This document shows, one piece after another, positions 3,952-23,687 of a DNA stretch of 64,000 nt. A model generated the notes under the pieces. That model was not told where the DNA came from and did no database searches. It saw only the letters and a program-made list of their open reading frames with translations. This DNA is from an uncultured Bacteroidales bacterium (GTDB lineage Bacteria > Bacteroidota > Bacteroidia > Bacteroidales > WCHB1-69): contig OMYJ01000007.1 in NCBI GenBank assembly GCA_900315245.1, positions 93,256-157,255 of the forward strand, written 5' to 3'. The position numbers were made by a program, and so were the translations under genes. The first letter of the stretch is position 1; each line of letters starts with the position of its first letter.

Positions 3952-3966
3952 CCCGAAAATTTGCCG

Positions 3967-6914: not shown

Positions 6915-6941
6915 CGTTTCGATTATATGTACGGATAACGC

Positions 6942-7709: not shown

Positions 7710-7743
7710 AACTCCTAACTCTTAACTCCTAACTGCTAACTAT
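7710..7743 (+). repeat. AACTCCT-type heptamer array
   Basis: AACTCCT AACTCTT AACTCCT AACTGCT AACTATT. Confidence 0.8.
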
Positions 7744-8987
7744 TATTTCCCTCCAAAATCATCATAATGCACCATTTCCTTCGTGACGCCCAAGCTGTCG
7801 AGCATCTTCAGCACGGCCTGCAGCATCATGGGCGGACCGCAGATGTAGTACTCGATGTCCTCGGGTGCGGGGTGGTTCTTCAGGTACTGCTCGTAAATCA
7901 CGTCGTGGATGAAGCCCGTGGGACCGGTCCAGTGGTCCTCGGGGAGGGCGTCGGAGAGGGCGACGTGGAACTCGAAATTGTCGTGTTCCGCCGCAAGCCG
8001 CTCGAATTCGTCCATGTAGAAGAGTTCCTTGCGCGAGCGGCCGCCGTACCAGAAGGTGGTTTTCCGTTGTGTATGTTTCACTTTGAACTGGTCGAAGATG
8101 TGCGAGCGCATGGGGGCCATGCCCGCGCCGCCGCCGATGAACATCATCTCACGGTCGGTCTCTTCCACGAAAAAGTCGCCGTAAGGTCCTGAGACATAGA
8201 CTTTGTCGCCCGGCTTCAGGCTGTAGATGTAGGATGACGCCACGCCTGGGTTCACCTTCTCCATCCGTCCCTTCTTGCGGTTGAAGGGTGGGGTGGCGAT
8301 GCGCACGTTGAGCATCACGATGCCGTTTTCCGCCGGGTAGTTGGCCATCGAGTAGGCGCGCACCGTCGGGGTTCCGTTCTTCATCCGCAGGTCGAAGAGC
8401 CCCATCTTCTGCCAGTCGGCGCGGTAGGGTTCCTCCACCGTCATGTCGGAGAAGTTGACGGTGCCGGCGGGGATGTCGATCTGGATGTAGCCACCGGAGC
8501 GGAAGTCCATGACCTCGCCCTCGGGCAGCTGCAGCACCAGCTCTTTGATGAAGGTGGCCACGTTGTGGTTGGAGACGACCTCGCACGCCCACTTCTTGAT
8601 GCCGAAGAAACTCTCGGGAATCTCGATTTCCATGTCCTCGCGCACCTTCACCTGACAAAAGAGGCGGTAATGGTCGGCGGCCTCCTTGCGGGAGATGTGC
8701 GTCAGCTCGGTGGGCAAGATCTCGCCGCCGCCGCTGAACACTTTGCCCCGGCAGGTGCCGCAGGAACCACCCCCGCCGCACGCCGACGGCACGAAGACCT
8801 GGGCGTCGGCCAGCGCCTGCAACAACGTGCACCCGCGCTCATGCTCGATCTCCTTCTTTCCGTTGATGTTGATCTTCACCGATCCCTCGGGGATCATCTT
8901 CTTCCGCGCAAATAACAGTATTCCGACCAGTAACCAGATGATTACCAGGAAGATGCTGGTAGCGGATATGATGGTTAAGATGTTCAT
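7743..8987 (-). CDS. nqrF: Na+-translocating NADH:quinone oxidoreductase subunit F
   Basis: N-terminal TM. 2Fe-2S motif [17 protein letters not shown]-binding region RAYSMANYP. Position after nqrE. Confidence 0.95.
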
Positions 8988-9004
8988 AGTCTGATTCGTT
9001 TTAT

Positions 9005-9079
9005 ACCCCCCTGCCCTTCGGGCATCCCCCCTAAAGGGTTTTACCCCCCTGCCCTTCGGGCATCCCCCCTAAAGGGGGG
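9005..9079 (+). repeat. Two tandem copies of a GC-rich double-hairpin element
   Basis: ACCCCCTGCCCTTCGGGCATCCCCCCTAAAGGG(GGG) twice, with stems TGCCC/GGGCA and CCCCCC/GGGGGG. A third copy is at ~9907..9944. Confidence 0.85.
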
Positions 9080-9099
9080 AATGGTCCTTCGACCGTATT

Positions 9100-9160
9100 A
9101 TTCTACATTATTAATTCTTAATTCATAATTCATCATTCATCATTCATCATTCATAATTGG
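9100..9160 (+). repeat. CATTCAT/AATTCAT heptamer array (nqrE-nqrF spacer)
   Basis: ...TTAATTCTTAATTCATAATTCATCATTCATCATTCATCATTCATAATTGG. Confidence 0.8.
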
Positions 9161-9162
9161 AA

Positions 9163-9765
9163 TTACATTCCCAGGAACGCCATAAACCCCATGCCTAACA
9201 GTCCGGTGATGATGTAGGCGATGCCGTTGCCTTGCAGTTTGGGCGGGATTTTCGCGTATTTGAGGCGCTCGCGGATGGCGGCGAAGGCGGTGATGGCTAA
9301 TAGCCAGCCGATGCCGGAACCGAGCGCGTAGGCCAGACTGTGCGCCACGGTGGGGAAGTTGCGCTCCTGCATGAAGAGCGAGCCGCCGAGGATGGCGCAG
9401 TTCACGGCAATCAGCGGCAGGAAGATGCCTAACGTCATGTACAGCGCCGGAAGATACCGCTCGAAGACCATCTCCAACAACTGCACGATGCCCGCGATCA
9501 CCGCGATGAAGATGATCAGCGACAGGAACGAGAGATCCGTGCCGGCAAAGCTCGCGCTCAGCCACGTCAACGCCCCTTCGCGGAGCAGGTATTTGTCGAT
9601 CAGGTAGTTGACGGGCACGGTAACCGTCAGCACGAAGCAGACGGCCAGTCCCAACCCGAAAGCAGTCTTCACGTTCTTGGAAACGGCCAGATAGGAGCAC
9701 ATGCCCAGGAAGTAGGCGAAGACCATGTTGTCGATGAAGACGGAGCGGAGGAAGATTTCTATCAT
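9163..9765 (-). CDS. nqrE: Na+-translocating NADH:quinone oxidoreductase subunit E
   Basis: 200-aa polytopic protein, FIDNMVFAYFLGMCSYLAVS, typical NqrE/RnfA family. Confidence 0.95.
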   Translation of the reverse strand: MIEIFLRSVFIDNMVFAYFLGMCSYLAVSKNVKTAFGLGLAVCFVLTVTVPVNYLIDKYLLREGALTWLSASFAGTDLSFLSLIIFIAVIAGIVQLLEMVFERYLPALYMTLGIFLPLIAVNCAILGGSLFMQERNFPTVAHSLAYALGSGIGWLLAITAFAAIRERLKYAKIPPKLQGNGIAYIITGLLGMGFMAFLGM

Positions 9766-9838: not shown

Positions 9839-9908
9839 GCCCCACACTGCGCTTCGCTTATGTGGGGTTATTAGCGCTTCGCGCGTCTTGCCCCTTCGGG
9901 GCTGCTTA
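9839..9908 (+). repeat. ~70-bp direct repeat, left copy, flanking the methyltransferase gene
   Basis: GCCCCACACTGCGCTTCGCTTATGTGGGGTTATTAGCGCTTCGCGCGTCTTGCCCCTTCGGGGCTGCTTA. A further degenerate half-copy lies at 9801..9838. Confidence 0.8.
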
Positions 9909-9960
9909 CCCCCCTGCCCTTCGGGCATCCCCCCTAAAGGGGGGAATTGGGGATTTTCGC

Positions 9961-10030
9961 ATCTTCATTCAACATTCATAATTCAGCATTCATAATTCAG
10001 CATTCATAATTCATAATTCTTAATTCTTAA
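9961..10030 (+). repeat. CATTCA(T/G)-type heptamer array
   Basis: ATTCAACATTCATAATTCAGCATTCATAATTCAGCATTCATAATTCATAATTCTTAATTCTTAA. Confidence 0.8.
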
Positions 10031-11030
10031 TGGAGTTTCGTTCCCAGAAGACGCCGTCGGCGTATCCTTGTATTGTGGGATTCGTGTCGGCGAGGAGGAG
10101 GCGTTTGGCGGTCCAGAGGCAGTATTCGCGGTTGAGTTCGACGCAGCAGAAGCGACGGTTGAGCTTCTTGGCAACGACGGCGGCGGTGCCGCTGCCGGAG
10201 AAGGGGTCGAGGATGCGGTCGTCGGGGTTGGAGGAGGCGAGGATGAGTTTGGCGTAGAGTTTCTCGGGCTTCTGCGTGGGGTGGTCGGTGTTCTCGGGCA
10301 TCGACCAGAAGGGCACGCTAATGTCGTCCCAGAAGTTGGAAGGGTGGGTGAGTCGGAATTTGCCCTCGGCGGTGTCGTCCCAGTCTTTGGGCTTCCCGTT
10401 CACTCGATATGGGGCTATCACCTTGCGTTTCATCATGACGGCATCCAGGTTGAAGGTGTGGTGTTTCGGGTCTTTCACGGCGAACCAGATGTCCTCCATG
10501 CTGTTCTTCCAGTTGGATTTCGCCCCGCGGCCCTTCTCGCGTTGCCAGGTGATGCGGTTGAGGATGGTAAGTCGCTCTTCGATAACCCGTTGCATGGAGG
10601 AGGAACATTTCCAGTCGCCGCACATGTAGAGCGTGCCAGTCGGTTTCAGCTTGTCGCACACCTTGCCGAACCAGCTGCGCAGGAATTCCTCGTATTCGTC
10701 TGATTTCATAGACGAGAACTTCCGTCCGTTGAAGTCTTTGTCGAGGTTGTAGGGCGGGTCGAGGAGGATGAGGTCGAAGTGTTTGTCGGGGATGAGGTCG
10801 AGGCATTCGAGCAGGTCGCCGTTGACGAGCATGTTGTCGCGGAAGCCCGAGCGCAGGTCGTCCGGCGTGCTGACGATCGGTTCCAGCGCGGGGACTTCCC
10901 CGGCGGTGACCGTCAGCGTCTGATTACGCGGGGCACGTCCCCCACACTGTGGCTCCGCCTTGTGTGGGGTTAATTTTGCTTCGCGCGTCTTGCCCCTCCG
11001 GGGCTGCTCAAGGAATGAATTCGTTGTCAT
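10020..11030 (-). CDS. Orphan beta-class N6-adenine/N4-cytosine DNA methyltransferase (N6_N4_Mtase family)
   Basis: Motif IV LLDPPYNL precedes motif I DPFSGSGTAAV. The track start 11075 is a TTG inside the -7 box, so the first plausible ATG is 11030 (alternative 10832). The first ~35 codons are encoded by a repeat element. No adjacent endonuclease is recognisable. Confidence 0.85.
   Translation of the reverse strand: MTTNSFLEQPRRGKTREAKLTPHKAEPQCGGRAPRNQTLTVTAGEVPALEPIVSTPDDLRSGFRDNMLVNGDLLECLDLIPDKHFDLILLDPPYNLDKDFNGRKFSSMKSDEYEEFLRSWFGKVCDKLKPTGTLYMCGDWKCSSSMQRVIEERLTILNRITWQREKGRGAKSNWKNSMEDIWFAVKDPKHHTFNLDAVMMKRKVIAPYRVNGKPKDWDDTAEGKFRLTHPSNFWDDISVPFWSMPENTDHPTQKPEKLYAKLILASSNPDDRILDPFSGSGTAAVVAKKLNRRFCCVELNREYCLWTAKRLLLADTNPTIQGYADGVFWERNSIKN
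10939..11010 (+). repeat. ~70-bp direct repeat, right copy (inside the 5' end of the methyltransferase ORF)
   Basis: CCCCCACACTGTGGCTCCGCCTTGTGTGGGGTTAATTTTGCTTCGCGCGTCTTGCCCCTCCGGGGCTGCTCA, in the same orientation as 9839..9908. Confidence 0.8.
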
Positions 11031-11064
11031 TTGCTGCCTCTTTCTCTCATGCTTTTCGAAGCCG

Positions 11065-11072
11065 CAAAGGTA
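11065..11072 (-). promoter_or_regulatory. -7 box (TACCTTTG) for the methyltransferase, possibly also feeding nqrEF
   Basis: Extended CCGCAAAGGTACA context, 35 nt upstream of ATG 11030. Confidence 0.55.
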
Positions 11073-11146
11073 CAATTTTTTGGTGTTCGTGCATAATCAT
11101 CAGAAACAACAATCGCATTTCACCTGCGCACTATCGGATTTTTTTG

Positions 11147-11669: not shown

Positions 11670-14027
11670 TTGAAACTTGCGACTATTTTTTTAGTTTTGC
11701 AAAGTCATATTCAAAAGAATTGTTTTTACAAAATATCAATAGTTGTGGAAAATTATAAACATGCTTGGCAATATGCTTTAAGAAATCAATTAAAGCACTT
11801 GCGGTCCGAAGGTGAGATATCTGAAAGAGAGTGCCTGTCTTTAATAGATGATATAATATCTTGTGATTCTGAAGCGGAATTTTATCGTCGTCATGACATG
11901 GATAACATTTTGAGTGGCGATATCATTCCTGACTTTGTCACAACTGATGATATTATCACAGATGACCTAACTATTGAAGACGAAGCACGTAAAATTGTAT
12001 TAGAGAAAAATATACAACTTATTGATGGCGTTTATTATTGTTTGAAAGAAAAAAAAGTAATCGCTATTAAGGGCGATGTAACACATTGTCATATACGAGA
12101 AGGAATTAAAGAAATCACTTACTATGCTTTTAGAAACTACTCCGAATTTGATATTCGAGATATTCTTGAGGATTATTCTGTCTTCAGTCACAATGCTTTA
12201 CTGGATATCATATTGCCTGATAGTTTAAAAAAGATAGATGACCTCGTCTTTTATAATACTAGTTTACGTAATGTTAAATTACCTGATGGTTTAGAAATGT
12301 TGGGAGAAAAAACTTTTGCTGCTAATGATTCTTTAGAAACAATTGTTTTACCAACCAAACTGCGCACAATAGGGAAAGGATGCTTTTCTAATTGTCCAAA
12401 ACTTAAGGAAGTTGAGCTTCCCCAATCGGTAAAAATGATAAAAGATGATTGTTTCAATGGCTGCACTTCTTTAGAAAAGTTTATTTTCCCTCAAACAGTG
12501 AAATCCATTGGTAAGTGCGTTTTCGAAAAATGTGTCTCTTTAAAAGAAATTGAGCTTCCTCATTCTTTGGAAACTATAGGACAAGCCGCTTTTACTAAGT
12601 GTACATCCCTACAGTCTATTATTATACCTAAAAATGTAAAAAACATTTCCGATAATGTATTTGGATATTGTTCCTCTTTAAAGAAAATTGAGTTTTTAGG
12701 GAGCTTCGACGAATTGAAGGGTGGTTTTTTTCGCAGTTGCTATTCATTGAAAGAAGTATTGTTGCCAAATAGTTTAGTAGAAATCGGCAATGCTGCTTTT
12801 AGCTCATGTATATCCTTAAAGGGCATAAAGATTCCTGACACAGTAGAATTAATAGGCTGTAACACTTTTAGAGATTGTATTTTGTTGGAGGAGTTCAGAT
12901 TTCCGAATAATCTTCAAGTTATTTTATCGCAAGCTTTTAAGGGATGCAAGAGCCTACGAGTAGTATATGCAAACAACAATATTGTAAAGATTTTTCCTAA
13001 CGCCTTTGATGATTGTAGTTCATTACAAGCCATTGTTGTTCCACCAGGATCGCTAAAACGAATGCAAAGTATCTTCCCGAAACGTGTTGCTGAAAAACTA
13101 GTAGAAATAGACCAGTTTCGGCCAGAAACTATTGTTGCTGTGCAACTTTATAAGAAAGATTATGTAATTAACAATATCAATCGTTCTTTTTTGAATAGTT
13201 TTCCGTGGAAGTATATTAATACCAACAATGTTACTCTCTTGCATCCCAATTACGTAGTTGGGCCTTGTCCAAAGCACCTTATTTATGAACGGGAAGATTT
13301 ATTGTCTCTTGAAACAAAGTACCAAGATTATTATTATAAGATTCAAAATGATTTTATACGAGGAACATTTTACAATCTCGATGACGAAATGTATAAGACG
13401 TATGCTTTCATACTATTTTTCGACTTAATTGCATCATACAGAGACAATAAAGATTTGAGTAAATTGCTTAATCAATTAGAAATTGTGCGTATTTCCTGTC
13501 CTATAATAGGGGATTATGTCCCAGAAAAGCTAATGACAATAATAGATTATAAACAATTGACTGGCACCTCTAAATTAATGATTCTTAAGGCTTTTCCGGG
13601 TTTTCGAGGCATGATGTCCATAAAGGACTATGCCCTGTTGGTGTTAAATTATTCTGATTCTCAAATAATCAAATTGAAAATACTGGAAGACGTTCAGATT
13701 TGTGAAATACAATTGTTGAAGTCTTATGAGAAAAGATACAAAGTGACACAAGGAGAGATTATAAAAGAAACGATAGATCTTGTGCTGCAAGTCGCCGGAA
13801 AATATGATGATTTTTCAAAGGCAGCGTTGTTGGCAGCAAAAAGGCAAAAAATCACATCTCTAACAGAGATAGGTTCGAGATTTTTGCGCAGATGCTTTCA
13901 GGAAGTGCTTCGTAATCATAATCCAAATATTATTTATGGTGATGGGATAGGATATGGAGATTGTGGAATTGAGAAAATTGATGAATACCTAAAGGAAATC
14001 ATGGAATCGAACACGCCGATTCACTGA
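11670..14027 (+). CDS. Signal-peptide-less BspA-type leucine-rich-repeat (LRR_5) protein with an unknown ~320-aa C-terminal domain
   Basis: About 11 repeats of the form LP.SL..IG..AF..C.SL..I.IP. The start is uncertain: TTG 11670 or the first in-frame ATG at 11898. AT-rich. No signal peptide or TM is visible. Confidence 0.75.
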   Translation: MKLATIFLVLQSHIQKNCFYKISIVVENYKHAWQYALRNQLKHLRSEGEISERECLSLIDDIISCDSEAEFYRRHDMDNILSGDIIPDFVTTDDIITDDLTIEDEARKIVLEKNIQLIDGVYYCLKEKKVIAIKGDVTHCHIREGIKEITYYAFRNYSEFDIRDILEDYSVFSHNALLDIILPDSLKKIDDLVFYNTSLRNVKLPDGLEMLGEKTFAANDSLETIVLPTKLRTIGKGCFSNCPKLKEVELPQSVKMIKDDCFNGCTSLEKFIFPQTVKSIGKCVFEKCVSLKEIELPHSLETIGQAAFTKCTSLQSIIIPKNVKNISDNVFGYCSSLKKIEFLGSFDELKGGFFRSCYSLKEVLLPNSLVEIGNAAFSSCISLKGIKIPDTVELIGCNTFRDCILLEEFRFPNNLQVILSQAFKGCKSLRVVYANNNIVKIFPNAFDDCSSLQAIVVPPGSLKRMQSIFPKRVAEKLVEIDQFRPETIVAVQLYKKDYVINNINRSFLNSFPWKYINTNNVTLLHPNYVVGPCPKHLIYEREDLLSLETKYQDYYYKIQNDFIRGTFYNLDDEMYKTYAFILFFDLIASYRDNKDLSKLLNQLEIVRISCPIIGDYVPEKLMTIIDYKQLTGTSKLMILKAFPGFRGMMSIKDYALLVLNYSDSQIIKLKILEDVQICEIQLLKSYEKRYKVTQGEIIKETIDLVLQVAGKYDDFSKAALLAAKRQKITSLTEIGSRFLRRCFQEVLRNHNPNIIYGDGIGYGDCGIEKIDEYLKEIMESNTPIH

Positions 14028-14247: not shown

Positions 14248-14469
14248 TTGGATAAGGTTCAATTTCTTACAGTCCCGTTATACTGTCCTTCTACTAAGCA
14301 ACAAACACTCGTTGTCGCTTTGGTTGACAAAATCATTGATGCTAAGAAGTCCAATCCTTCGGCTGATACCTCCGCGTTGGAGCGTGAGATTGACGAGTTG
14401 GTGTACGAGTTGTATCAATTGTCACCTGAAGAGATTGCCACAACAGAGGGTTATTGTACACAGAATTAA
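14248..14469 (+). pseudogene. C-terminal fragment of a type IIG / Eco57I-like restriction-modification methyltransferase
   Basis: ...LVVALVDKIIDAKKSNPSADTSALEREIDELVYELYQLSPEEI is the characteristic C-terminal tail of gamma-class RM/BREX-type methylases (from memory). No upstream catalytic region is present. Confidence 0.55.
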
Positions 14470-14801: not shown

Positions 14802-15224
14802 ATGGATAGTAGCAAATTAAAAGATCTTATCGTGACTTTGCTCATAGAAGAGTCATCAAAAGTTGGGAACAGATTCACGTTTGATGCCTGCGCAACACCG
14901 ATAAAAGAATCAACGTCTGATGATGTTGAGCGCGTACTGCATTCGTTGGCGCAAGATGGATTCATCAATTGTGATGATTTATTAGAAAACAACTACTTTA
15001 TAACATTAAACCAGTCAATTTTTGATTTGAAAGAGCGCGGCGGGTTTTCAATGCAACTTGAAATCCTAAAGTTGAGATTTGAGAAACTACAAATAGAGGT
15101 TGAAAAACTTGAGAAAGAAGACTTCGAAAAAAGCTCCATGAAAGTTTCCGCGTTTCGTGACATTACGGGAATATTGAGCTCTCTTATCAATATCGTTTCT
15201 GCCATTGCAGATTCTTACAAATAA
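14802..15224 (+). CDS. Hypothetical protein (possible wHTH-like N-terminus, coiled coil, hydrophobic C-terminal helix)
   Basis: AT-rich ORF with a 12-nt gap to the next ORF. LEILKLRFEKLQIEVEKLEKEDFEK coiled coil. C-terminal ITGILSSLINIVSAIA. No family recognised. Confidence 0.55.
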   Translation: MDSSKLKDLIVTLLIEESSKVGNRFTFDACATPIKESTSDDVERVLHSLAQDGFINCDDLLENNYFITLNQSIFDLKERGGFSMQLEILKLRFEKLQIEVEKLEKEDFEKSSMKVSAFRDITGILSSLINIVSAIADSYK

Positions 15225-15236: not shown

Positions 15237-16073
15237 ATGAAGACATTTCAAGATAATAACAAAAATGAATGCCCTAAACCAGGAATTCGTCAGAGGTGTT
15301 TTCGACACTCGATTTTTAAAACGCTATCTGATATTAAGGACTTTTATGAAAGTTTGTCTGGGAATGATGATACATCTACTATTCTCGCAATTAAGGGTGA
15401 AATCAACGTTAACTGGAGCATTCTTGAATCTCTTTCTAATACTATTGACTCCATAATAACATTGTTGGAAAGAGGTCATGTGAATGACTCGCTTGCCTTA
15501 ATGAGAAAATACAGCGATGCTGTCTTTTTGCATGTTTACATGCTTGTGCTAATAGAACAAGGAGAACAAAACTTTTTCGAAAAAGAATATGCAGATATCT
15601 ATGACAATGTCCTTAACCAATGGGTTAGAGGGGAAAGTTGTTTGATTGAGAAAAAGGACAAAGATGAGAAAACAGACGCTTATTTAGCAGAAATACGAAA
15701 ACGAGACGCTATATTAACCAAGCTGTTGTTTACAAAAGGCAATAAAACATTGTATGGAGAAGGTAGGGCTTCTTTTAACGACAACATTCATTACAACAAC
15801 TTGAAATCGTTTCGGTGGAACAATAATGCCTTTTTGGATTATGAAACATGTTTAACTGTACTGAATCAAGCAGAAAAAGCAATCAAACTTATTTTGAGCA
15901 TTCATTTCGCTTACATAACTCTATTGCGCCCAATGGCTTTGAAATCAGAAGAGGTTGGATCTTGTGCGGCCAATCCTTTCGCAGACGAAATTTTCAAGAA
16001 GTATATTGTTCCTGAATACTGCGAGTTAGCCAGTTACTTGAGACATTGTTCTTTTTTAACATTCGAAGAGTGA
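15237..16073 (+). CDS. Hypothetical all-alpha protein
   Basis: 278-aa AT-rich ORF tightly linked to 14802..15224. No family recognised. A loose resemblance to AbiV/HEPN-like helical proteins is only a guess. Confidence 0.55.
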   Translation: MKTFQDNNKNECPKPGIRQRCFRHSIFKTLSDIKDFYESLSGNDDTSTILAIKGEINVNWSILESLSNTIDSIITLLERGHVNDSLALMRKYSDAVFLHVYMLVLIEQGEQNFFEKEYADIYDNVLNQWVRGESCLIEKKDKDEKTDAYLAEIRKRDAILTKLLFTKGNKTLYGEGRASFNDNIHYNNLKSFRWNNNAFLDYETCLTVLNQAEKAIKLILSIHFAYITLLRPMALKSEEVGSCAANPFADEIFKKYIVPEYCELASYLRHCSFLTFEE

Positions 16074-16118: not shown

Positions 16119-16424
16119 ATGAACCAAAACGACCCGCGCATCACCGAATATCAAAACGACTTACAGCGCTATCAATCTTGGGGAAATTTATTCCTCGGTT
16201 TCTCTTTTGGTAGCTTCTTCTCCCCAAACGTGCCGTGCGATTCGCTAACCCTTCACAACGGCTTAGAGTATCTCAAAGCCAAAATGAAACTAAACGCCTT
16301 TAACAGCCAACATCATTCGGACGAGGAAATCGAGCACCGTTTGCGACAAATCGATACGGACATCCGCCATGTGGAGGAGGCCCTGCGGAACGACCTCTCC
16401 TTCCGAGGCCTGCTCCGTCCGTAA
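16119..16424 (+). CDS. Small hypothetical protein whose 3' half belongs to the island composite repeat
   Basis: 101 aa. Hydrophobic WGNLFLGFSFGSFFSP. The C-terminus HRLRQIDTDIRHVEEALRNDLSFRGLLRP recurs at 19500..19609, and a paralogous tail recurs at 16800..16887. Confidence 0.45.
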   Translation: MNQNDPRITEYQNDLQRYQSWGNLFLGFSFGSFFSPNVPCDSLTLHNGLEYLKAKMKLNAFNSQHHSDEEIEHRLRQIDTDIRHVEEALRNDLSFRGLLRP

Positions 16425-16887
16425 CCGCCGTCACGCGCCTCCCTGCCTACACCGGCGTCAACCGCCACGCCTCCGGCATCCGCATCGAGCTGATGGACAG
16501 CATGGTGCCGGTGGAAGCACTGGTGTGCGGGGTGAATCATCCCCGTCAGGGGATGCCTGTCTGTAGCGGATGCCCATGCGCGGGTTCAAATCCCCGGAGG
16601 GGATTCATGTTCAGCGGGTTGCCGAAACATTGTTGTGCCCGATGTGCAACCCCTCACGGGGTTGTGGGGGCTGCCGCATCGCCAACGGCTACAGACAGGG
16701 AACCCCTAACGGGGTTCGGGGGTGCGGTCGGGAACGTCCTCGCGCTACAGATATGGAAGCCCTGACGGGCTTTGGAAGGATACGGAAACGAGCCCATCAC
16801 CGCCTTGCCGAAATCGACGACGACATTCGCAAGGCCGAGGAGGTTTTCCGCTACGACCTCTCCTTCCTCAGGCGGTTGGAAACATGA
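16281..16887 (+). repeat. Island composite repeat copy A (alpha + beta units)
   Basis: Alpha ~16281..16623 aligns with 19469..19813. Beta ~16624..16887 aligns with 20980..21200. It is made of short perfect hairpins such as ATCCCC-GTCA-GGGGAT. Confidence 0.85.
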
Positions 16888-17047
16888 ATGCCCTAGTTCC
16901 ATATAATATAATAAGAACGCCCTGTTGCCACTATCGCACGTCGGGAATCCCATCCAAGTGGAAAATGCATTCCGTTAACAATGCGAATAGCAGATTTCAA
17001 AAATAATTCCAATCATCCAATATTTATTGCATAGAACAAAAAAAATG

Positions 17048-17055
17048 TATTTTTG
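17048..17055 (+). promoter_or_regulatory. -7 box (TATTTTTG) for the DUF4062/AlbA_2 pair
   Basis: TAnnTTTG match 80 nt upstream of ATG 17135. A GCAAGC/GCTTGC hairpin lies in the leader. Confidence 0.55.
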
Positions 17056-17134
17056 CAATTGCAAGCCGAGTTCGTTTACTCAGCTTGCATGAACTAATTT
17101 GGTGTAGTCATTGAATGTTTATTGAATCGGTGTG

Positions 17135-17794
17135 ATGGTAGAAAAGGACAAATTTACGGTGATGGTGAGTTCATCAGTGAACGGATTTGAAGATCAATTG
17201 CTTCGCATTGAGGCACAATTCATCACGTTGGAATATGATGTAATAATGTCAATGTCGGGTTCAATGAAGGTTGACCCAAGACTGCACAACTTTGACAATT
17301 GCTTAAAAGCCGTTGAAGAGTGTGATCTGTTTTTTGGAATTATCAGACCTGATTGCGGTACAGGCAGAGACGGAAGTGAAAGTATTACCTTTCAAGAATT
17401 TAAACATGCTCGGGAATGTCATAAACCTTGTTGGTATGTGATTGATAATCGAATTAAAACATACAAGAATTTGCTGAAATCTTTAGTTCTGCGTGAACAT
17501 CCAGACACAAAAGATGAAGATTTGAACAAAGCCATCACATCTTTCTATGATAACACTATAAGACAAAGGAGGAAACTTCCAAGAGTGTTGGATCTTTTTG
17601 AGACCAAAGACTTACATCAGTTTGATCCTTTATGTTTTGTTATGGAAGATTTTGTGAACCACAAAGGTTTACCTAAAGAAGAAATCACCAATAATTGGAT
17701 GCACTATTATGACCATGAATTGGATATCGCAAAATATATCCGTACAAATTTTGGGGACAAGGTATTCATTGCTAATGTATTAAAAGAATTTTGA
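17135..17794 (+). CDS. DUF4062-like (TIR / nucleoside deoxyribosyltransferase-like fold) protein
   Basis: FTVMVSSSVNGFEDQL...CLKAVEECDLFFGIIRPDCGTG...ITFQEFKHARECHKPCWYVI follows the DUF4062 pattern (vFiSS...DL..eR...cD.fv.i.G.rYG...S.te.Ey..A...kp...f). GTG 17132 / ATG 17135. TAnnTTTG box at 17048..17055. Confidence 0.6.
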   Translation: MVEKDKFTVMVSSSVNGFEDQLLRIEAQFITLEYDVIMSMSGSMKVDPRLHNFDNCLKAVEECDLFFGIIRPDCGTGRDGSESITFQEFKHARECHKPCWYVIDNRIKTYKNLLKSLVLREHPDTKDEDLNKAITSFYDNTIRQRRKLPRVLDLFETKDLHQFDPLCFVMEDFVNHKGLPKEEITNNWMHYYDHELDIAKYIRTNFGDKVFIANVLKEF

Positions 17795-17796
17795 TT

Positions 17797-19356
17797 ATGA
17801 GCGACAATTCGTATATAGTGGATTTTTTACTCAAAGATAGGCAAAATGTGGTGCCTATTCCAACAGCAGACCCCGTAGAGATTGCTAAAAATGCTTGTGC
17901 TTTGGCCAACACACAAGGAGGTACTATGCTCATTGGGGTCAATAATCTTGGCGAACTTGTAGGTGTTGGCCTAAAAGAAGCCACGGACATCATAAACAAA
18001 TGCCTTATCAACAATGTACACCCAACACTTCCTTTTACTATTGGCCATTCTGAAAAAGAGGGCAAAAACATTGCAATAGTTTCTGTTTGGGAAGGCCCGA
18101 ACAAGCCCTATGTTGCAAACGGTGCCTTTTACATACGAAAAGAGGATACTACTGTTGCTGCCTCATCTGACGAAATGATTGGCCTTTTTGAAGAAAAATA
18201 TTCATTAGATGAAGGATGGGAACGGAGAACGCAAGTTTCTGCTTCTATTGATGATTTAGACAGTGTTGCCATATCAAAAATTCGAAACGTATTACTACGG
18301 AAAGATGGAAAGTATGCGACAGCTTCAGAAGTGGAAATTATGCGAACTATGGGATTTGTAAAAGACCAATCCTTCACAAATGCTGGTGTTGTGGTAATGT
18401 CAAAACAGCCTTCCATATTTATACCTCAAACAAGAATTAGAGTGTCGGTATTCACAACGGATAATGGTCAAGCATCTTTGGCAGATGTAAGGTTATACGA
18501 TATTAGTCTTATATCCGCTGTTGACGAAGTGGTCGCCTATCTTTACAATCTATATCCTAAGCGTGTTGTTATCGAAGGAATGTTACGCTCTGATGTCGAG
18601 TCATTGCCGTTGTTGGCCTTACGAGAAGGAATATTAAACGCCGTAGTTCATCGTTCGTATGAAAGCCATCAGTCTTTTGTTGCCATTAATGCATATAGCG
18701 ATTATCTGGAAATTGTTAATAGTGGGAATCTTATGGATGGTGTCACCTTGGATGGATTAAAGAGCGTTCATCGTTCTGTTTTACGTAATCCGGATATTGC
18801 AAATGCTTTTTACCAATTAAGATATATCGAAATGGTGGGAAGTGGTACTTTAAGGATTATTGAATCCTGCAGACAAAACAGATGCGAAGAACCAGTATGG
18901 ACATTGGCGAACAATTGCGTGATTCTGACTTTTCCAAATGTCCATCACAATTTACAACCATTGAAAGAAAAGAAATCTGTTGATGTTTCCAATCTGACGA
19001 CAGACAATTCGGTCAAAGTTTCATTAACTGCTATTATGGATTATTTAGCTACTCATGATCACGTTAAATTAAATGAGTTGACAGAACTGACAGGAAAGAG
19101 CTACCCTTCAGTGAAAAGATACATGCGAATTCTGAAAGACGCATCATTAATTGAATATCTTGGTAATTTGCGTTCTGGCGGCTGGGCATTATCTAATAGT
19201 GTCAGCACCTCGCGTCATAGCAGACCGCTTGATGATCCCAATGATAGTCCTAATGATGATCTTAATGGTGATCCCAATGACGATCCTAATGATGATCCCA
19301 ATAGTGATCCCAATGGTGATTCCAATGGTGTTCCTAATGGTGATCCTAATATATAG
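17797..19356 (+). CDS. Schlafen-type AlbA_2 domain + HATPase_c_4 + wHTH protein (RecG-like putative regulator family) with a low-complexity Asp-Pro-Asn tail
   Basis: N-terminal IAKNACALANTQGGTMLIGVNNLGELVGV (AlbA_2). LREGILNAVVHRSY...MVGSGTLRIIESC (HATPase_c_4). wHTH LNELTELTGKSYPSVKRYMRILKD. Start is either ATG 17797, 2 nt after the upstream stop, or TTG 17791 overlapping it. Confidence 0.8.
   Translation: MSDNSYIVDFLLKDRQNVVPIPTADPVEIAKNACALANTQGGTMLIGVNNLGELVGVGLKEATDIINKCLINNVHPTLPFTIGHSEKEGKNIAIVSVWEGPNKPYVANGAFYIRKEDTTVAASSDEMIGLFEEKYSLDEGWERRTQVSASIDDLDSVAISKIRNVLLRKDGKYATASEVEIMRTMGFVKDQSFTNAGVVVMSKQPSIFIPQTRIRVSVFTTDNGQASLADVRLYDISLISAVDEVVAYLYNLYPKRVVIEGMLRSDVESLPLLALREGILNAVVHRSYESHQSFVAINAYSDYLEIVNSGNLMDGVTLDGLKSVHRSVLRNPDIANAFYQLRYIEMVGSGTLRIIESCRQNRCEEPVWTLANNCVILTFPNVHHNLQPLKEKKSVDVSNLTTDNSVKVSLTAIMDYLATHDHVKLNELTELTGKSYPSVKRYMRILKDASLIEYLGNLRSGGWALSNSVSTSRHSRPLDDPNDSPNDDLNGDPNDDPNDDPNSDPNGDSNGVPNGDPNI
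19231..19353 (+). repeat. 12-nt tandem repeat (~10 units) encoding the (D/N/S)-(D/G)-P-N tail
   Basis: GATGATCCCAAT GATAGTCCTAAT GATGATCTTAAT GGTGATCCCAAT ... Confidence 0.85.
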
Positions 19357-19381
19357 CATTTGATGATTGAGGAAAAAGTGA

Positions 19382-19612
19382 CATTGGCATCTCATTTCTC
19401 AGCTACTTTTCTTCCGATCTCCCAGCGGTTCCATAATTCGCAACAACAGTTTGGAATTCTGCAAATCCCAAAAGAAGCTAAACGCCCTCACCGATGCCCG
19501 TCACTCTGACGAGGAAACCGCTCACCGTTTGCGGCAAATCGACACGGACATCCGCCATGTGGAGGACGTCCTCTGTCACGACCTCTCCTTCCGAGGCCTG
19601 CTCCGTCCGTAA
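19382..19612 (+). pseudogene. Start-less degenerate copy of the 16119..16424 ORF
   Basis: The in-frame translation ...KKLNALTDARHSDEETAHRLRQIDTDIRHVEDVLCHDLSFRGLLRP* parallels the C-terminal half of the 101-aa ORF. There is no ATG, and a TGA lies immediately upstream. Confidence 0.45.
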
Positions 19613-19813
19613 CCGCCGTCACGCACCTCCCTATCCCACACCGCCCCCAACCGCCACGCCTCCGGCACCCGCATCGGGCTGATGGACAGCACGGTGTCGG
19701 TGGAGGCGATGGTGGGCGGGGTGCCCCCATCCCCGTTAGGGGATGCCTATCTGTAGCGGATGCCCACGCGCGGGTTCAAATCCCCGGAGGGGATTCATAT
19801 TCAACGGGTTGCA
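19469..19813 (+). repeat. Island composite repeat copy B (alpha unit only)
   Basis: Near-identical by eye to 16281..16623, with scattered substitutions. Confidence 0.85.
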
Positions 19814-19917
19814 AGGTGAAAATTGTCGTGAAATTATGTTCGTGCAATAAATGCGCCCCGTCCTCGTTAATCTCTGAAATAAAACGGAATATTAAACAAA
19901 CAGTAAAAGAAAACAGA

Positions 19918-20658
19918 ATGGAAATAGGAAATTTCGGATACTACTGGTTGGACACCTGGGTGATGTCCAACGTGATACAACTCGCCACGCAGGATTTCTG
20001 CAGGCGCTATCTAAACCGTTCCAACGATCCGTGTGGCCGCCAATACGACCAGATGACGCAAGCGGCACGGTCGGTACCGGCCAACATCGCGGAGGGAAAC
20101 TCGCGACACGACACCTCTAAGGAGACCGAGATGCGGCTCACAGATGTGGCCCGCGCGAGCCTCGCAGAACTGGCCAACGACTACCTGAACTGGCTCCTCC
20201 AGCACGAAGAGCTCCCATGGTCGGTGAAATCGGACATCTACTGCAAGGTGTCAAACACCCACCTCGACAAGCCCTTATACAAGGACGATGTGCAATATCT
20301 AAGCAGCCAACATATTCTGGTCCAAAAGCACAAATTCGATGAGTGGCTGGAGGCAAAGAACTCGATTATGGCAGCCAACTGCTTGTTAGTCCTCTGCAAT
20401 CGTTTGATCATGATGCTGAGGAAACAACTGGCTAACCAACTGGAAACTTTCCGGGCCGAAGGCGGTTTCACAGAAGCCCTGACCGCCGAAAGACTCGCTT
20501 ACCGAGCCGAACAAAGCGCGAACTCCAACGCCCCTGTCTGCCCGAAATGCGGCAAACCGATGATAAAGCGGATGGCAAAGAAAGGCATAAATTCGGGAAA
20601 GGAGTTCTGGAGCTGTTCCGGATACCCGGCGTGCAGAGGGACCAGAAACGTAGAGTAA
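19918..20658 (+). CDS. Four-helix-bundle (23S rRNA IVS / Avd-like) domain fused to a topoisomerase-type C4 zinc finger
   Basis: From ATG 19918: WVMSNVIQLATQDFCRRY...SVPANIAEGNSRHDTSKETEMRLTDVARASLAEL (TIGR02436-like). C-terminal CPKCGKPMIKR...FWSCSGYPACRGT (zf-C4_Topoisom-like). Confidence 0.75.
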   Translation: MEIGNFGYYWLDTWVMSNVIQLATQDFCRRYLNRSNDPCGRQYDQMTQAARSVPANIAEGNSRHDTSKETEMRLTDVARASLAELANDYLNWLLQHEELPWSVKSDIYCKVSNTHLDKPLYKDDVQYLSSQHILVQKHKFDEWLEAKNSIMAANCLLVLCNRLIMMLRKQLANQLETFRAEGGFTEALTAERLAYRAEQSANSNAPVCPKCGKPMIKRMAKKGINSGKEFWSCSGYPACRGTRNVE

Positions 20659-20732: not shown

Positions 20733-21275
20733 CTCCGTCACGACCTCTCCTCCCGTCGCCTGCTCCGTCCGTGACCCCCTGTCCCGCACCTCCCTTGTCC
20801 CTCACCGCCTCCACCCGCCACGCTTCCGGCACCCGCATCGGGCTGATGGACAGCACGGTGCCGATCGAGGCGCTGGCGAGCGGGGTGGCTCATCCCCGTT
20901 AGGGGATGCCTATCTGTAGAAACGGATGCCCATGCGCGGGTTCAAATCCCCGGAGGGGATTCATTTTCAACGGATTGCCAAAACATTGTCGTGACCGATG
21001 TGCAACCCCTCACGGGGTTGTGGGGGCTGCCGCATCGCCAACGGCTACAGAGAGGGAACCCCTAATGGGGTTCGGGGGGCGCGGCCGGGAACGTCCTCGC
21101 GCTACAGATATGGAAGCCCTGACGGGCTTTGGAAGGATACGGAAACGAGCCCATCACCGATTTGCCGAAATCGACGACGACATCCGCAAGGCCGAAGCCC
21201 CTCCGTCACGACCTCTCCTTCCGTGGCCTGCTCCGTCCGTGACCGCCGTCATGCATCTCCCTTGTCCTACACCGC
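20733..21275 (+). repeat. Island composite repeat copy C (5'-truncated alpha + beta + a second partial alpha abutting nqrD)
   Basis: 20733..20979 aligns with the distal part of alpha. 20980..21200 aligns with beta. 21200..21275 repeats the start of the alpha core and overlaps the nqrD stop codon. Confidence 0.8.
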
Positions 21276-21857
21276 CCTCGGTCCTTTCGCCCAAATAATC
21301 ACCCCAATCAAGATCAGCGCCATGGGCGGCAAAATCATCAGCCCGTTGTTGAGGTAGCCGGCGGCGTACCAGCTGTCGGGGACGACCTGGTGGTTCCACA
21401 ACGTGCCGGAGCCGAGCAATTCGCGGAAGAAGGCCACCACGACGAGCACCAGCCCGTAGCCGAGACCGTTCATCACGCCGTCCATGAACGACGGGAACGG
21501 TTTGTGTGACAGCGCGAAGGCCTCCAACCGGCCCATGATGATGCAGTTGGTGATGATGAGTCCCACGAAGACCGACAGCATCTTGCTCACATCATAGAGA
21601 TACGACTGCAGCAACAGATCCACGAGGATAACGAAGAAGGAGACCACCAGCAGCTGCACGATGATGCGGATGCGTGGCGGTATCGTGTTGCGCATCAAAG
21701 AGATGATGAAGTTGGAGCAGGCACAGACCACCGTCACGGAGAGCGCCATGACCACGGCGGGCTTGAGTTGCGCGGTCACTGCCAACGCAGAGCAGACGCC
21801 CAACGTCTGCACTAAAATCGGGTTGTCTTTGCTGAGAGGTCCGAGGTACTTTTTCAT
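21267..21857 (-). CDS. nqrD: Na+-translocating NADH:quinone oxidoreductase subunit D
   Basis: NPILVQTLGVCSALAVT, polytopic, 196 aa. The last codons and the stop lie inside an island repeat. Confidence 0.95.
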   Translation of the reverse strand: MKKYLGPLSKDNPILVQTLGVCSALAVTAQLKPAVVMALSVTVVCACSNFIISLMRNTIPPRIRIIVQLLVVSFFVILVDLLLQSYLYDVSKMLSVFVGLIITNCIIMGRLEAFALSHKPFPSFMDGVMNGLGYGLVLVVVAFFRELLGSGTLWNHQVVPDSWYAAGYLNNGLMILPPMALILIGVIIWAKGPRAV

Positions 21858-21861
21858 GGCA

Positions 21862-22476
21862 TTAATGGTGATTGGTGATTTGTGAAGAGTGAATGGAGGA
21901 TTGCATCATCTCATCCACTCCTTTGGAGGTCAGTGTGGCGCCGGAGATGGCATCCACGCGGTTCTCTTTGGCGATTTCGCTAGCGGTTCCAGCTTTCAGA
22001 ACCCTCACGGACACGAAGTTGCCATCCTTATCGTAGAGTTTCTTGCCTTCGAAGGCTTTCAGGAACGCCTTTTCTGTGATTTTCGCGCCCAAGCCGGGGG
22101 TTTCCGATTTGTGGTCGAAAGCGACACCTTTGAGCGTTTGTCCGTCCTCCGACACCACCGCGTAGCCCCATATCGGACCCCAAAGCCCTTTGCCATCGAG
22201 ACGGATTGCTGTGCCCTTCGAACCGTCGGCGCAGATGACACGGTACTGCTGACCGTCATCGGTCAACGGCTCGGCAAGGTTTGCGAACGCCGCCACAGCT
22301 TTCGAACGGTCGATGTCGTGTCCGGCCGCCCGCAGGATCTGCTGATACGTCTCGGCCTGCCGATTGCGGTCGCGTCGCGGCTTTAACCCCGTGGAAACCA
22401 GAGTAAGCACCACCGCTATCACCACAACTAACGCCGTGATATAGAGGAAGATGTAGGTGTTGCTGAATTTTTTCAT
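21862..22476 (-). CDS. nqrC: Na+-translocating NADH:quinone oxidoreductase subunit C
   Basis: N-terminal TM. FMN attachment motif SGATLTS. The C-terminal QITNHH is encoded by heptamer-repeat-like sequence. Confidence 0.95.
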   Translation of the reverse strand: MKKFSNTYIFLYITALVVVIAVVLTLVSTGLKPRRDRNRQAETYQQILRAAGHDIDRSKAVAAFANLAEPLTDDGQQYRVICADGSKGTAIRLDGKGLWGPIWGYAVVSEDGQTLKGVAFDHKSETPGLGAKITEKAFLKAFEGKKLYDKDGNFVSVRVLKAGTASEIAKENRVDAISGATLTSKGVDEMMQSSIHSSQITNHH

Positions 22477-22478: not shown

Positions 22479-22648
22479 AGTGATTGGTGATTAGTGATTG
22501 GTGATTAGTGATTGGTGATTAGTGATTAGTGATTGGTGATTAGTGATTAGTGATTGGTGATTAGTGATTGGTGATTAGTGAATAGTGATTAGTGATCGGA
22601 GCCAAAAGTCTCAAGTCTCAAGTCATAAGTCCAACGTCTTACGTCTCC
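22479..22648 (+). repeat. GTGATTA/GTGATTG heptamer array (~16 units) plus an AGTCTCA array in the nqrB-nqrC spacer
   Basis: ~115 nt are C-free on the plus strand. The AGTCTCA/CGTCTTA units run into the nqrB stop region. Confidence 0.9.
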
Positions 22649-23687
22649 GTTTGATGTGGTTTTGTACGATGCACCAGTCGATGAGGGGGGCGAAGATGTT
22701 CATGAGCAGGATGGCGAGCATCATGCCTTCGGGGTAGCCTTTGTTGAGGGTGCGGATGAGGATGGCCAAGATGCCGATGAGCAGTCCGTAGAAGTACTTG
22801 CCGTTGCGGGTGTGAGCGGCGGTGACAGGGTCGGTGGCCATGAAGACCGCGCCGAACATGAATCCGCCCATCAGCAATTGGTCGTGGGCGGCGACGGGAC
22901 AAAGACCTGTCAGCTGGCAGACCACCGCTGTTGCATAGCCGCCGACGAACACGGAGAGCATAATCCGCCAGTCGGCCACCTGCGTGAAAATCAGGATGGC
23001 TGCGCCGATGAGGATGGCGATCTTGCAAGTCTCCCCGATACAGCCGGGAATCGTGCCGAAGAAGAGTTCCCATGTGGAGGGCATCGCCTCGGGGTGACCG
23101 TTCATGACGAGGGCGAGGGGAGTGGCGCCGGTGACCGCGTCCGCACCGGAAATCCAGACTTTGTCACCGGAGATCACCGACGGGTAGGCGAAGAAGACGA
23201 AGGCACGGGCCAGCAACGCAGGGTTCAGGAAGTTGTAGCCGGTTCCGCCGAAGACCTCCTTGCCGAAGATCACGGCGAAGATAGTGGCCACCGCCACGAT
23301 CCAGAGCGGCACGTCGGGCGGCATGATCATCGGGATGAGGAAGCCCGTGACGAAGAAGCCCTCCGCCACCTCCTCCTTGCGGATTTGTGCGAAGAGGACC
23401 TCCACGCCGAGCCCGCTGACATAGGTCACGATGACCAACGGCAGCCATTTCAGAAAACCGTACCAAAGGCAAGGCCACAGTGCAGTCTCTCCCCCGATAG
23501 CGAGGAAATGCTGATAGCCCACGTTCCACCAGCCGAACAGTAGCGCGGGACAGAGCGCAATCATCACGGTAATCATGATGCGCTTCATATCGACCGCGTC
23601 GCGCACGTGGCAACGGCCGTCCGTGACTGTCGCGGGCGTGCGCAGGAACGTGTCCATGGCGTCGAGCAGGGCGTTGAACTTTCTCAT
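22623..23687 (-). CDS. nqrB: Na+-translocating NADH:quinone oxidoreductase subunit B
   Basis: Polytopic NqrB/RnfD-family protein, located between nqrA and nqrC. Confidence 0.95.
   Translation of the reverse strand: MRKFNALLDAMDTFLRTPATVTDGRCHVRDAVDMKRIMITVMIALCPALLFGWWNVGYQHFLAIGGETALWPCLWYGFLKWLPLVIVTYVSGLGVEVLFAQIRKEEVAEGFFVTGFLIPMIMPPDVPLWIVAVATIFAVIFGKEVFGGTGYNFLNPALLARAFVFFAYPSVISGDKVWISGADAVTGATPLALVMNGHPEAMPSTWELFFGTIPGCIGETCKIAILIGAAILIFTQVADWRIMLSVFVGGYATAVVCQLTGLCPVAAHDQLLMGGFMFGAVFMATDPVTAAHTRNGKYFYGLLIGILAILIRTLNKGYPEGMMLAILLMNIFAPLIDWCIVQNHIKRRRKTLDL

Follow-up and report, generated by a model that had tools for sequence, protein, structure and literature searches.

DUF4062, also called 'NIR', is a TIR-like NADase domain in the systems Avs2-NIR, Vulcan, Vesta, Swarozyc, and Evangelion, which were described in three 2026 preprints (bioRxiv 10.64898/2026.09.04.749371, 10.64898/2026.05.01.722283, and 10.64898/2026.06.25.731849). 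According to these preprints, all five systems deplete NAD+, abort infection, and need a conserved glutamate; the characterised DUF4062 enzymes yield ADP-ribose and nicotinamide with bulk NAD+ depletion, and the family clusters apart from the canonical TIR domains. Bacterial Schlafens are tRNase effectors that, like Schlafen-GHKL proteins, defend against phage (Perez Taboada et al. 2026, PMC13056530; bioRxiv 10.64898/2026.05.29.728809). Here we analysed a stretch of 64,000 nucleotides from an uncultured Bacteroidales bacterium (assembly GCA_900315245.1, contig OMYJ01000007.1; hereafter the window), in which a gene for a small DUF4062 protein (gene A) is followed at once by a gene for a Schlafen-type protein (gene B) at positions 17048–19356. 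The linkage of A and B is near-obligate in both directions and across phyla. We give about an even chance to the reading, drawn from sequences and structure models, that A and B constitute one two-component abortive-infection-type defence system against phage or mobile elements, with A as the NADase effector and B as the ATP-dependent sensor or regulator.

Vesta, like the A–B pair, is a two-gene operon whose first gene encodes a small DUF4062/NIR protein with a catalytic glutamate and whose genes are strongly co-conserved (Le Mouellic et al., bioRxiv 10.64898/2026.09.04.749371). It defends by NAD+ depletion and abortive infection, as we propose for A–B. However, the Vesta partner VstB is an alkaline phosphatase dispensable for defence, whereas the partner in A–B combines SLFN_AlbA_2, HATPase_c_4, and winged helix-turn-helix (wHTH) domains; VstA also carries a putative ligand-binding domain at its C-terminus, whereas A is predicted to be essentially the TIR-like domain alone. 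Swarozyc and Evangelion share with A the DUF4062 TIR-like core, the glutamate in an S-x-T-x-x-E-like motif, and a conserved tryptophan motif, and their effector logic is the NAD+ depletion proposed for A. The sensor AUX of Swarozyc has an HTH/winged fold, and a wHTH ends B here. In these two systems, sensor and effector occupy one polypeptide that acts alone, whereas in A–B the putative sensor is a separate 519-residue protein containing an ATPase domain, linked to A in all 78 evaluable loci.

The commonest prokaryotic Schlafen architectures are Slfn-HisKinase (34%) and Slfn-HisKinase-HTH (19%), together 53% (PMC13056530), and B has exactly the Slfn, GHKL (HisKinase-like), and HTH architecture of the second class. 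The SLFN plus GHKL unit was named 'Schlatpase' in a preprint on SLFN-pAgo, in which E314 and N318 of RzAgo, equivalent to E277 and N281 of B, bind ATP-Mg, and ATP binding by the homologous GHKL domain drives tetramerisation and assembly of the active nuclease (bioRxiv 10.64898/2026.05.29.728809). B matches the PADLOC model of pAgo across its SLFN-GHKL part and keeps the ATP-binding residues. In the prokaryotic Schlafens (pSlfn) and SLFN-pAgo, the tRNase effector function resides in the Schlafen domain and a conserved partner gene was not reported, whereas A–B has an obligate upstream DUF4062 gene. A comparative study found Schlafen-minimal-histidine-kinase-wHTH proteins widely beside BREX, as putative back-up effectors.

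The first-pass annotation of the window had called the DUF4062-Schlafen pairing undescribed, which agrees with every text that could be searched; subscription-only literature lay outside this scope, as did figures that might depict the pairing (Swarozyc S1G and Figure 2 of the NIR preprint). The combination is new in the sense that it was not found described, and both modules are known, having recently been validated as immune; it was only in 2025–2026 that DUF4062/NIR NADases and, separately, bacterial Schlafens came to be seen as immune modules. To our knowledge, the A–B operon would be the first known case of NIR and Schlafen obligately coupled.

The features of the locus are as follows (AF2, AlphaFold2; pLDDT, predicted local distance difference test).

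17048–17055, + strand: Bacteroidetes-type -7 box match TAnnTTTG (TATTTTTG); sequence read and pattern search
17132–17794, + strand: gene A, stand-alone DUF4062/NIR TIR-like protein; Pfam, AF2, Foldseek, ortholog alignment
17797–18201, + strand: gene B, N-terminal Schlafen/AlbA_2 domain, about residues 1–135; Pfam SLFN_AlbA_2, 1e-15, above cutoff
18202–18561, + strand: gene B, middle alpha/beta linker domain, about residues 136–255; AF2 model, alignments, homology to DIP2311 (3lmm)
18562–18951, + strand: gene B, GHKL-type ATPase domain (HATPase_c_4, PF13749); Pfam, 5e-17, above cutoff
19006–19194, + strand: gene B, C-terminal wHTH, about residues 404–466; weak Pfam, AF2, Foldseek
19201–19356, + strand: gene B, disordered acidic tail with the stop codon at its end; Tandem Repeats Finder, direct repeats, low pLDDT

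Organisation of the gene pair

Genes A and B are two open reading frames (ORFs) on the same (+) strand that fill positions 17132–19356. Gene A encodes 220 amino acids from a GTG start at 17132 or 219 from an ATG at 17135; its database twin P0001 (219 amino acids) begins at the position of the ATG, which is probably the true start. Gene B encodes 519 amino acids from an ATG at 17797, 2 nt past the stop of gene A, or 521 from a TTG at 17791, with a 4-nt overlap with that stop. Both spacings had been read correctly in the first-pass annotation. We adopted the ATG because it agrees with the N-terminus of the family and with the database protein P0062.

The same annotation had given the pair its own -7 box. 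The match TATTTTTG is present 77–80 nt 5' of the start of gene A and, judged from the motif, is a plausible promoter; the pattern is common in the window (45 matches versus 34 expected), so that a single match is weak evidence alone. The description of the pair as AT-rich holds, with a GC content of 36–39% at 17–19 kb versus 53–58% in the nqr genes on either side. When the window was scanned for Rfam families and tRNAs, none turned up inside the A–B cassette or close to it.

The DUF4062 protein A

Gene A matches Pfam DUF4062 (PF13271) over residues 10–93 with an E-value of 4e-11 (43.4 bits; cutoff, 24.7). Its AF2 model (pLDDT 90; predicted template modelling score 0.85) is one compact domain of the alpha/beta type; it carries an insertion after the fourth strand (D) and before the fifth (E), and has no separate C-terminal sensor domain. 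A Foldseek search of the PDB with this model gave TIR-STING, the TIR-APAZ protein of SPARTA, the SARM1 TIR, DNPH1, CMP N-glycosidase, and nucleoside 2-deoxyribosyltransferase (NDT) as the top matches, and also plant TIR domains. Both the family assignment of the 220-residue protein and the TIR/nucleoside-deoxyribosyltransferase-like fold ascribed to it earlier were thus borne out.

Six residues (E62, C64, D65, G76, T86, and E89) are invariant in all 81 A orthologs. The putative catalytic glutamate is E89, within the motif S-I-T-F-Q-E-F. Its position fits E87 of Evangelion (Eva01), E97 of Swarozyc (KpSwz), E98 of Vulcan, E103 of Vesta (VstA), and E108 of Avs2-NIR (PsAvs2), the correspondence being one of motif and position rather than of direct alignment. 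The motif and the modelled fold suggest that A is an NADase.

No model in PADLOC-DB v2.0.0 matched A at E-values up to 0.1, no PHROGs model matched A, and the A profile, when searched against PDB sequences, yielded chance matches alone; NCBIfam holds no model for A or B. No relatives of A were found in 2.9 M viral contigs or 50,697 phage genomes, and thus the A–B system seems not to be phage-borne. On plasmids, we found one true A–B pair (Hymenobacter) and distant DUF4062 proteins, with which A shares weak partial similarity (35% identity over 76 residues); S. aureus plasmids had no match to A at an E-value of 1e-3.

Several variants of the DUF4062 gene were also observed. Five double-length relatives of A (P0182, P0187, P0188, P0198, and P0201; 359–411 amino acids) align with the A-family profile in two stretches, and in the two that were scanned (P0182 and P0188) Pfam DUF4062 was detected in the C-terminal half only. 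In loci L007–L010 (7195–8001; L008, 4013–4846), one more gene, with faint similarity to DUF4062, immediately precedes A. In P0276, DUF4062 is fused to a canonical TIR_2 domain. On the A. baumannii plasmid pC9_4 (L174, NZ_CP113446.1, 2477–4351), a small DUF4062 protein is followed 3 nt on by a Fic-family protein, which suggests a variety of partners for small NIR proteins.

The Schlafen-GHKL-wHTH protein B

The AF2 model of B (pLDDT 82) comprises Schlafen, middle, GHKL, and wHTH parts, with residues 469–519 disordered (pLDDT <50), and matches DIP2311 (PDB 3lmm) along its full length in Foldseek (E 1e-23). The architecture proposed earlier for the 519-residue protein was confirmed by Pfam for the AlbA_2 and HATPase_c_4 domains and by structure model and fold search for the wHTH.

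The Schlafen domain resembles the N-domains of human and pig SLFN11, SLFN14, and SLFN5, as well as 2kyy, in Foldseek. In the window, however, B departs from the prokaryotic Schlafen nucleases: Q16, V19, and I21 stand in place of the nuclease motif Ex4(E/D)xK, and N50 in place of the pocket aspartate. The B proteins of loci L013–L015 carry the same four replacements. Of the 75 B orthologs that were scored, at least 40 retain the whole motif together with the pocket aspartate, and several other lineages have altered versions. The earlier label 'Schlafen-type' is thereby refined, since B of the window lineage, which has lost the motif, is nuclease-dead by this measure.

In the middle domain, W141-E142-R143 and R215 are invariant. 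The GHKL domain, which matches the BCKDK and HK853 kinase domains in Foldseek, has an intact N-box (E277/N281) and intact glycine boxes (N308/G310 and G348/G350) in the window. E277, N281, H285, and R286 occur in every aligned B ortholog (76 of 78, with two gaps), as do G310, N331, G348, and G350 (75 of 78, with three gaps); position 308 is N in 65, S in nine, and C in one. The Pfam matches of the wHTH (HTH_IclR, HTH_5, and HTH_24; residues 414–456) are sub-threshold. In the AF2 model, this region folds into three helices with a beta-wing, and Foldseek gave MepR, IscR, CadC, and SmtB (MarR/ArsR-type).

The tail is coded by a 12-nt tandem repeat at 19230–19350 (about 10 copies; (D/N)PND-like), as detected by Tandem Repeats Finder. 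The copy number varies, giving B lengths of 521 (window), 513 (L013), and 509 (L014) amino acids; the tail is shorter in P0063 and absent in most B homologs (about 465 amino acids). Phase variation by this repeat was considered and set aside, because the 12-nt unit is in frame and alters the length rather than the reading frame. In PADLOC-DB v2.0.0, B gave partial matches alone, to the pAgo model (SLFN-GHKL region) and Aga SIR2-PNTD. PHROGs assigned B to phrog_12156, which is mislabelled 'DNA helicase', and NCBI and JGI (Joint Genome Institute) label B-like proteins 'RNA-binding domain-containing protein', 'ATP-binding protein', or 'RecG-like helicase'.

Conservation of the A–B linkage

We scanned one genome per species (185,579 species) with one conserved peptide pattern of A, which gave 172 A relatives, and examined the best 80 loci. 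Gene B lies immediately downstream of A on the same strand in 78 of the 80, and the other two are cut by contig ends. In the reciprocal scan, in which metagenomes were searched with an alignment of B, A lies directly upstream in 74 of the 75 loci with room for it; the sole exception is L149 (642–2129), where A is absent despite the room. A linkage conserved across genomes, on which the first-pass proposal of a functional module depended, is thus found from either gene. It also persists at low similarity: A homologs at 73%, 54%, and 39% identity each adjoin a B gene in unrelated contexts, and B homologs at 33–34% identity have a DUF4062 gene directly upstream.

The junction of the two genes is tight in 115 of 116 loci, with an overlap of 4–14 nt or a gap of 1–3 nt. 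The stop of A overlaps the start of B by 11 nt in 47 loci, 8 nt in 16, 4 nt in 13, and 14 nt in five, and a gap of 1–3 nt separates them in 24. Such overlapping or near-abutting junctions are a signature of translational coupling. In addition, a natural DUF4062-SLFN_AlbA_2-HATPase_c_4 fusion of 640 amino acids exists in three sequence variants on four contigs, which by the Rosetta-stone argument indicates that A and B work as one unit.

An exhaustive profile search gave 120 clusters (50% identity) with E-values up to 1e-30. The hosts belong to Bacteroidota, Ignavibacteria, Alpha-, Beta-, and Gammaproteobacteria, Campylobacterota, Desulfobacterota, Verrucomicrobiota, Planctomycetota, Acidobacteriota, Firmicutes, and Spirochaetota, and include the archaeon Methanothrix. 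With the two genes found paired at about 150 independent loci, chance does not account for the arrangement.

The nearest relatives of the window cassette (97–99% identity) are L013, L014, L093, and L094, which come from metagenome-assembled genomes of uncultured Bacteroidales and from metagenomes. In these four assemblies, A and B are intact and their coding parts about 99% identical.

Genomic neighbourhoods

In unrelated genomes, the pair recurs beside known defence genes, above all those of restriction-modification (R-M) systems, with DUF4238 and NERD genes (L013) and ThsB_TIR genes (L004) among the other neighbours. Adjacent genes mostly share the direction of the pair: the closest one upstream does so in 68 of 73 loci and the closest one downstream in 57 of 70. 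The census of Pfam domains in upstream neighbours, given like the downstream one as raw counts, is led by Eco57I (15), N6_Mtase (11), MmeI_Mtase (8), Methylase_S (7), and HsdM_N (6), and that of downstream neighbours by N6_Mtase (7), ResIII (7), AAA_5 (4), and PLDc_2 (3); alkaline phosphatase, the partner in Vesta, is not among the top 25 families of either. A single-sequence phmmer screen placed Hsd genes in at least 20 of the 80 genome loci, often abutting the pair. A location in defence islands, which had been put forward as a check on the proposal, is therefore observed at the level of raw counts, and together with the linkage it supports the description of the pair as a candidate defence module, 'defence' being read from linkage and context.

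PrrC and RloC are suicide effectors embedded in type I R-M operons, prrC being so placed in EcoprrI. Likewise, the A–B pair in many genomes is co-directional with hsdR, hsdM, and hsdS and placed among them or immediately behind them, as in L011 (Arenibacter; hsdR-hsdM-hsdS-A-B) and L012 (hsdR-hsdS-A-B-hsdM). PrrC and RloC are nevertheless unrelated to A and B as proteins, and the window copy is without an intact adjoining R-M system. On the Hymenobacter plasmid, the pair lies beside traK, traM, and traN. In L004, a capsule/polysaccharide-type locus, it is followed by ThsB_TIR, TPR, and ThsB_TIR genes; a 23S_rRNA_IVP/bAvd gene is also near the pair in that locus.

Proposed mechanism and alternative explanations

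If A and B form the defence system outlined at the beginning, we infer an A–B complex, a direction of signalling, a trigger, and an abortive phenotype as follows. A, a minimal TIR-like NIR (DUF4062) NADase, would hydrolyse NAD+ when licensed and so halt the infected cell. B, a 'Schlatpase-HTH' protein, would serve as the sensor or regulator, binding ATP and oligomerising as the homologous SLFN-pAgo module does. With its Schlafen, middle, or wHTH domains, it may detect a sign of infection, possibly a nucleic acid, a phage protein, or a neighbouring R-M system that has failed. B would keep A off until infection, and then release A or assemble it into an active oligomer. Oligomerisation would be the likely switch, as in TIR NADases generally and in the Schlatpase of RzAgo. 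In the B orthologs with an intact nuclease motif, tRNA cleavage may provide a second effector arm; in the window lineage, where the Schlafen site is lost, NAD+ depletion would be the only killing activity. We take A to be the putative core effector because the glutamate of A and the ATP site of B never vary, the Schlafen site comes and goes, and A has no sensor domain. The position inside R-M operons suggests, by analogy with PrrC, a back-up role when restriction is evaded.

Several observations weigh against this proposal. Schlafen-histidine-kinase fusions gave no protection against a phage panel in E. coli (Perez Taboada et al., PMC13056530). In PADLOC v2, neither A nor B matches a system model. 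Some homologous pairs of Bacteroidales lie inside capsule/polysaccharide loci, which are not a classic defence context, and in the window no intact R-M system adjoins the cassette and no known defence gene was identified beside it. The near-identical copies differ by 3–6 synonymous and 2–5 non-synonymous changes per gene, and the resulting dN/dS of about 0.1–0.24, although consistent with both genes being maintained, comes from 5–11 substitutions only and is statistically weak. Finally, most of the scored B orthologs have an intact Schlafen nuclease site, and B could equally be the effector there.

This last point leads to the first alternative, in which B is the effector, its Schlafen domain cleaving tRNA as in pSlfn5, Cash, and SLFN-pAgo, and A detects infection or modulates B. 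Schlafen domains are proven tRNase effectors in bacteria, the complete motif and pocket aspartate are kept in at least 40 of 75 B orthologs, and GHKL drives assembly of the active nuclease in RzAgo. However, all four catalytic-pocket positions are replaced in the window B and other lineages have lost the motif too, whereas the catalytic glutamate of A is invariant in 81 of 81 orthologs and A lacks a recognisable sensor domain; we thus regard B as an unlikely principal effector.

The pair might instead act for addiction or as a guardian, A being an NADase toxin, B a repressor or antitoxin through its wHTH, and the pair stabilising the island or the flanking R-M operon; or it might be a PrrC-like device that fires on inhibition of R-M and does not sense phage directly. 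The pair is embedded among hsdS, hsdM, and hsdR where prrC sits, B has a wHTH, and the cassette is mobile, repeat-bounded (see below), and found in varied contexts, including the Hymenobacter plasmid by tra genes. Yet most loci have no R-M gene as an immediate neighbour and none is intact near the window copy, and an ATPase of 465–520 amino acids far exceeds the typical size of an antitoxin. We consider this explanation improbable; it overlaps with the two-component defence system favoured here, because an R-M guardian is still a defence system.

TIR-fold enzymes of Thoeris make cyclic or isomeric ADP-ribose signals. A Thoeris-like scheme, in which A makes a signalling nucleotide from NAD+ and B binds the signal with its GHKL pocket or middle domain and responds by RNA cleavage, DNA binding, or transcriptional shutdown, would accord with the two separate proteins, one of them a small TIR-like enzyme, and with the ThsB_TIR genes adjoining the pair in L004. 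SPARTA and Thoeris also resemble A–B in coupling a TIR-fold effector to a separate sensor protein, with oligomerisation-dependent activation, and the SPARTA TIR-APAZ protein is among the best structural matches of A. They belong, however, to a different TIR lineage, and A–B has no Argonaute, SLOG, or Macro partner. The scheme is rather improbable, given that the characterised DUF4062 enzymes produce ADP-ribose and nicotinamide with bulk NAD+ depletion, that no SLOG, Macro, CARF, or SAVED-type domain was found in B by Pfam or Foldseek, and that B has no active effector site in the window lineage.

A role outside conflict, with A as a nucleoside/nucleotide N-glycosidase or deoxyribosyltransferase-like metabolic enzyme and B as its transcriptional regulator, would fit the DNPH1, CMP N-glycosidase, and NDT matches of A and the pairs within polysaccharide biosynthesis loci, but is very improbable in view of the patchy, horizontally transferred distribution across phyla and into archaea, the AT-rich, foreign-looking DNA, the R-M and defence neighbours, the experiments establishing DUF4062 proteins as NADase immune effectors, and the defence association of Schlatpase proteins.

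In a stronger and more tentative form of the two-component proposal, A and B may represent an unnamed, widespread, obligate two-protein immune system, in which the Schlatpase is an ATP-gated sensor or scaffold licensing NAD+ depletion rather than the killer, and which would act as a guard that fires when restriction fails. If this is true, the system joins two prokaryotic modules that have conserved counterparts among immunity-related proteins of humans, namely the NIR NADase of the TEP1 type and Schlafen, and the nuclease-dead lineages show the Schlafen fold acting purely as an RNA or protein sensor. The human counterparts are TEP1, NWD1, and NPHP3 for NIR and SLFN11, SLFN13, and SLFN14 for Schlafen. 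The A–B operon offers a natural experiment on the role of the Slfn-GHKL-HTH architecture, and the contrast between nuclease-intact and nuclease-dead lineages bears directly on Schlafen as effector or sensor. We hypothesise that a missing DUF4062 partner could explain the Slfn-HisKinase constructs without a phenotype. The pair is present in gut and rumen Bacteroidales, which are poorly charted for defence, and is relevant to phage therapy and microbiome engineering.

The island and its repeats

The cassette lies in an AT-rich island of about 11.5 kb (about 9.8–21.26 kb) that interrupts the Na+-NQR operon, most island genes being opposite in direction to nqr. The features around the cassette are as follows.

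7743–8987, − strand: nqrF, at one side of the island
9163–9765, − strand: nqrE, same side as nqrF
10020–11075: N6_N4 DNA methylase, intact
14248–14469, + strand: remnant, C-terminal tail (73 amino acids) of a type IIG Eco57I/TaqI_C/MmeI-like R-M enzyme; blastp
16237–16900, + strand: GC-rich inter-cassette repeat, upstream copy
19443–19812, + strand: GC-rich repeat, downstream copy
20740–21274: GC-rich repeat, third copy, past the next cassette
21267–21857, − strand: nqrD, far side of the island
21862–22476, − strand: nqrC, far side
22623–23687, − strand: nqrB, far side

The upstream and downstream repeat copies bound the A–B cassette on both sides, as had been noted before. The GC-rich repeat is a lineage-specific element of 0.2–0.65 kb that separates AT-rich gene cassettes. 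It also flanks the A–B cassette in the four near-identical loci (in L013 at 3822–4397, 6921–7105, and 7851–8059; in L014 at 121–557, 3070–3460, and 4322–4581), and blastn found diverged copies in these loci only; an exact-match search for the repeat cores in the fetched loci gave none. The cassette and its flanking repeats (about 16255–19812) are all that the window and these loci have in common. In L013, a NERD-domain gene and a DUF4238 gene precede the cassette with the same repeat between, whereas in L014 the cassette precedes ORF6N/Rha and RhuM genes. Because the cassette and repeats are shared while the surrounding DNA differs, the A–B cassette is a mobile or shuffled unit in repeat-separated arrays.

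The repeat contains CCCC-N4-GGGG hairpins and a long-range stem (DNA fold z-score, -3.2), together with in-frame peptide-like pieces (HRLRQIDTDIRHVE..DLSF) that have no family match. It could be a recombination site, a miniature inverted-repeat transposable element, or att remnants of tandem insertions. An integron-like cassette array was considered and set aside, as no integrase was seen and repeats of 0.2–0.65 kb far exceed attC sites. The stretch 'GGTTCAAATCC' in the repeat resembles a tRNA T-arm but is not a tRNA. A weak piece of the repeat occurs at 60263–60337.

Methyltransferase and restriction remnants had been reported next to the pair. The analysis identified an intact N6_N4 methylase and the type IIG C-terminal tail; a 'restriction remnant' as such was not found. 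The 73-residue ORF is 40% identical (E 2e-8) to residues 976–1035 of a 1055-residue protein encoded upstream of the pair in L045, which matches the Eco57I, TaqI_C, N6_Mtase, and MmeI domains. Type IIG R-M genes of this kind directly precede the pair in other genomes.

The remaining island genes are of other types. A BspA-type leucine-rich-repeat protein of 785 amino acids is encoded at 11670–14027, with a C-terminal region of about 330 residues that has no family match. Two adjacent ORFs at 14802–15224 (140 amino acids) and 15237–16073 (278 amino acids) make up the cassette on the upstream side of the repeat; Pfam, NCBIfam, PHROGs, and PADLOC gave no significant match to either, and the two may be another pair of uncharacterised cargo genes of the island. 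The next repeat-bounded cassette (19816–20658) encodes a 280-residue protein consisting of a four-helix bundle (23S rRNA IVP/TIGR02436 and '4helix_suffix') and a C-terminal topoisomerase-type zinc ribbon. The nqrE gene is flanked by a second repeat family (9003–9172 and 9906–10039) composed of the 42-nt unit TTACCCCCCTGCCCTTCGGGCATCCCCCCTAAAGGGGGGAAT and 7/14-nt ATTCATA-type tandem arrays. Elsewhere in the window, two DUF805b RNA motifs (Rfam RF02914) scored above the gathering threshold, at 49960–49994 and 50899–50933 on the minus strand.

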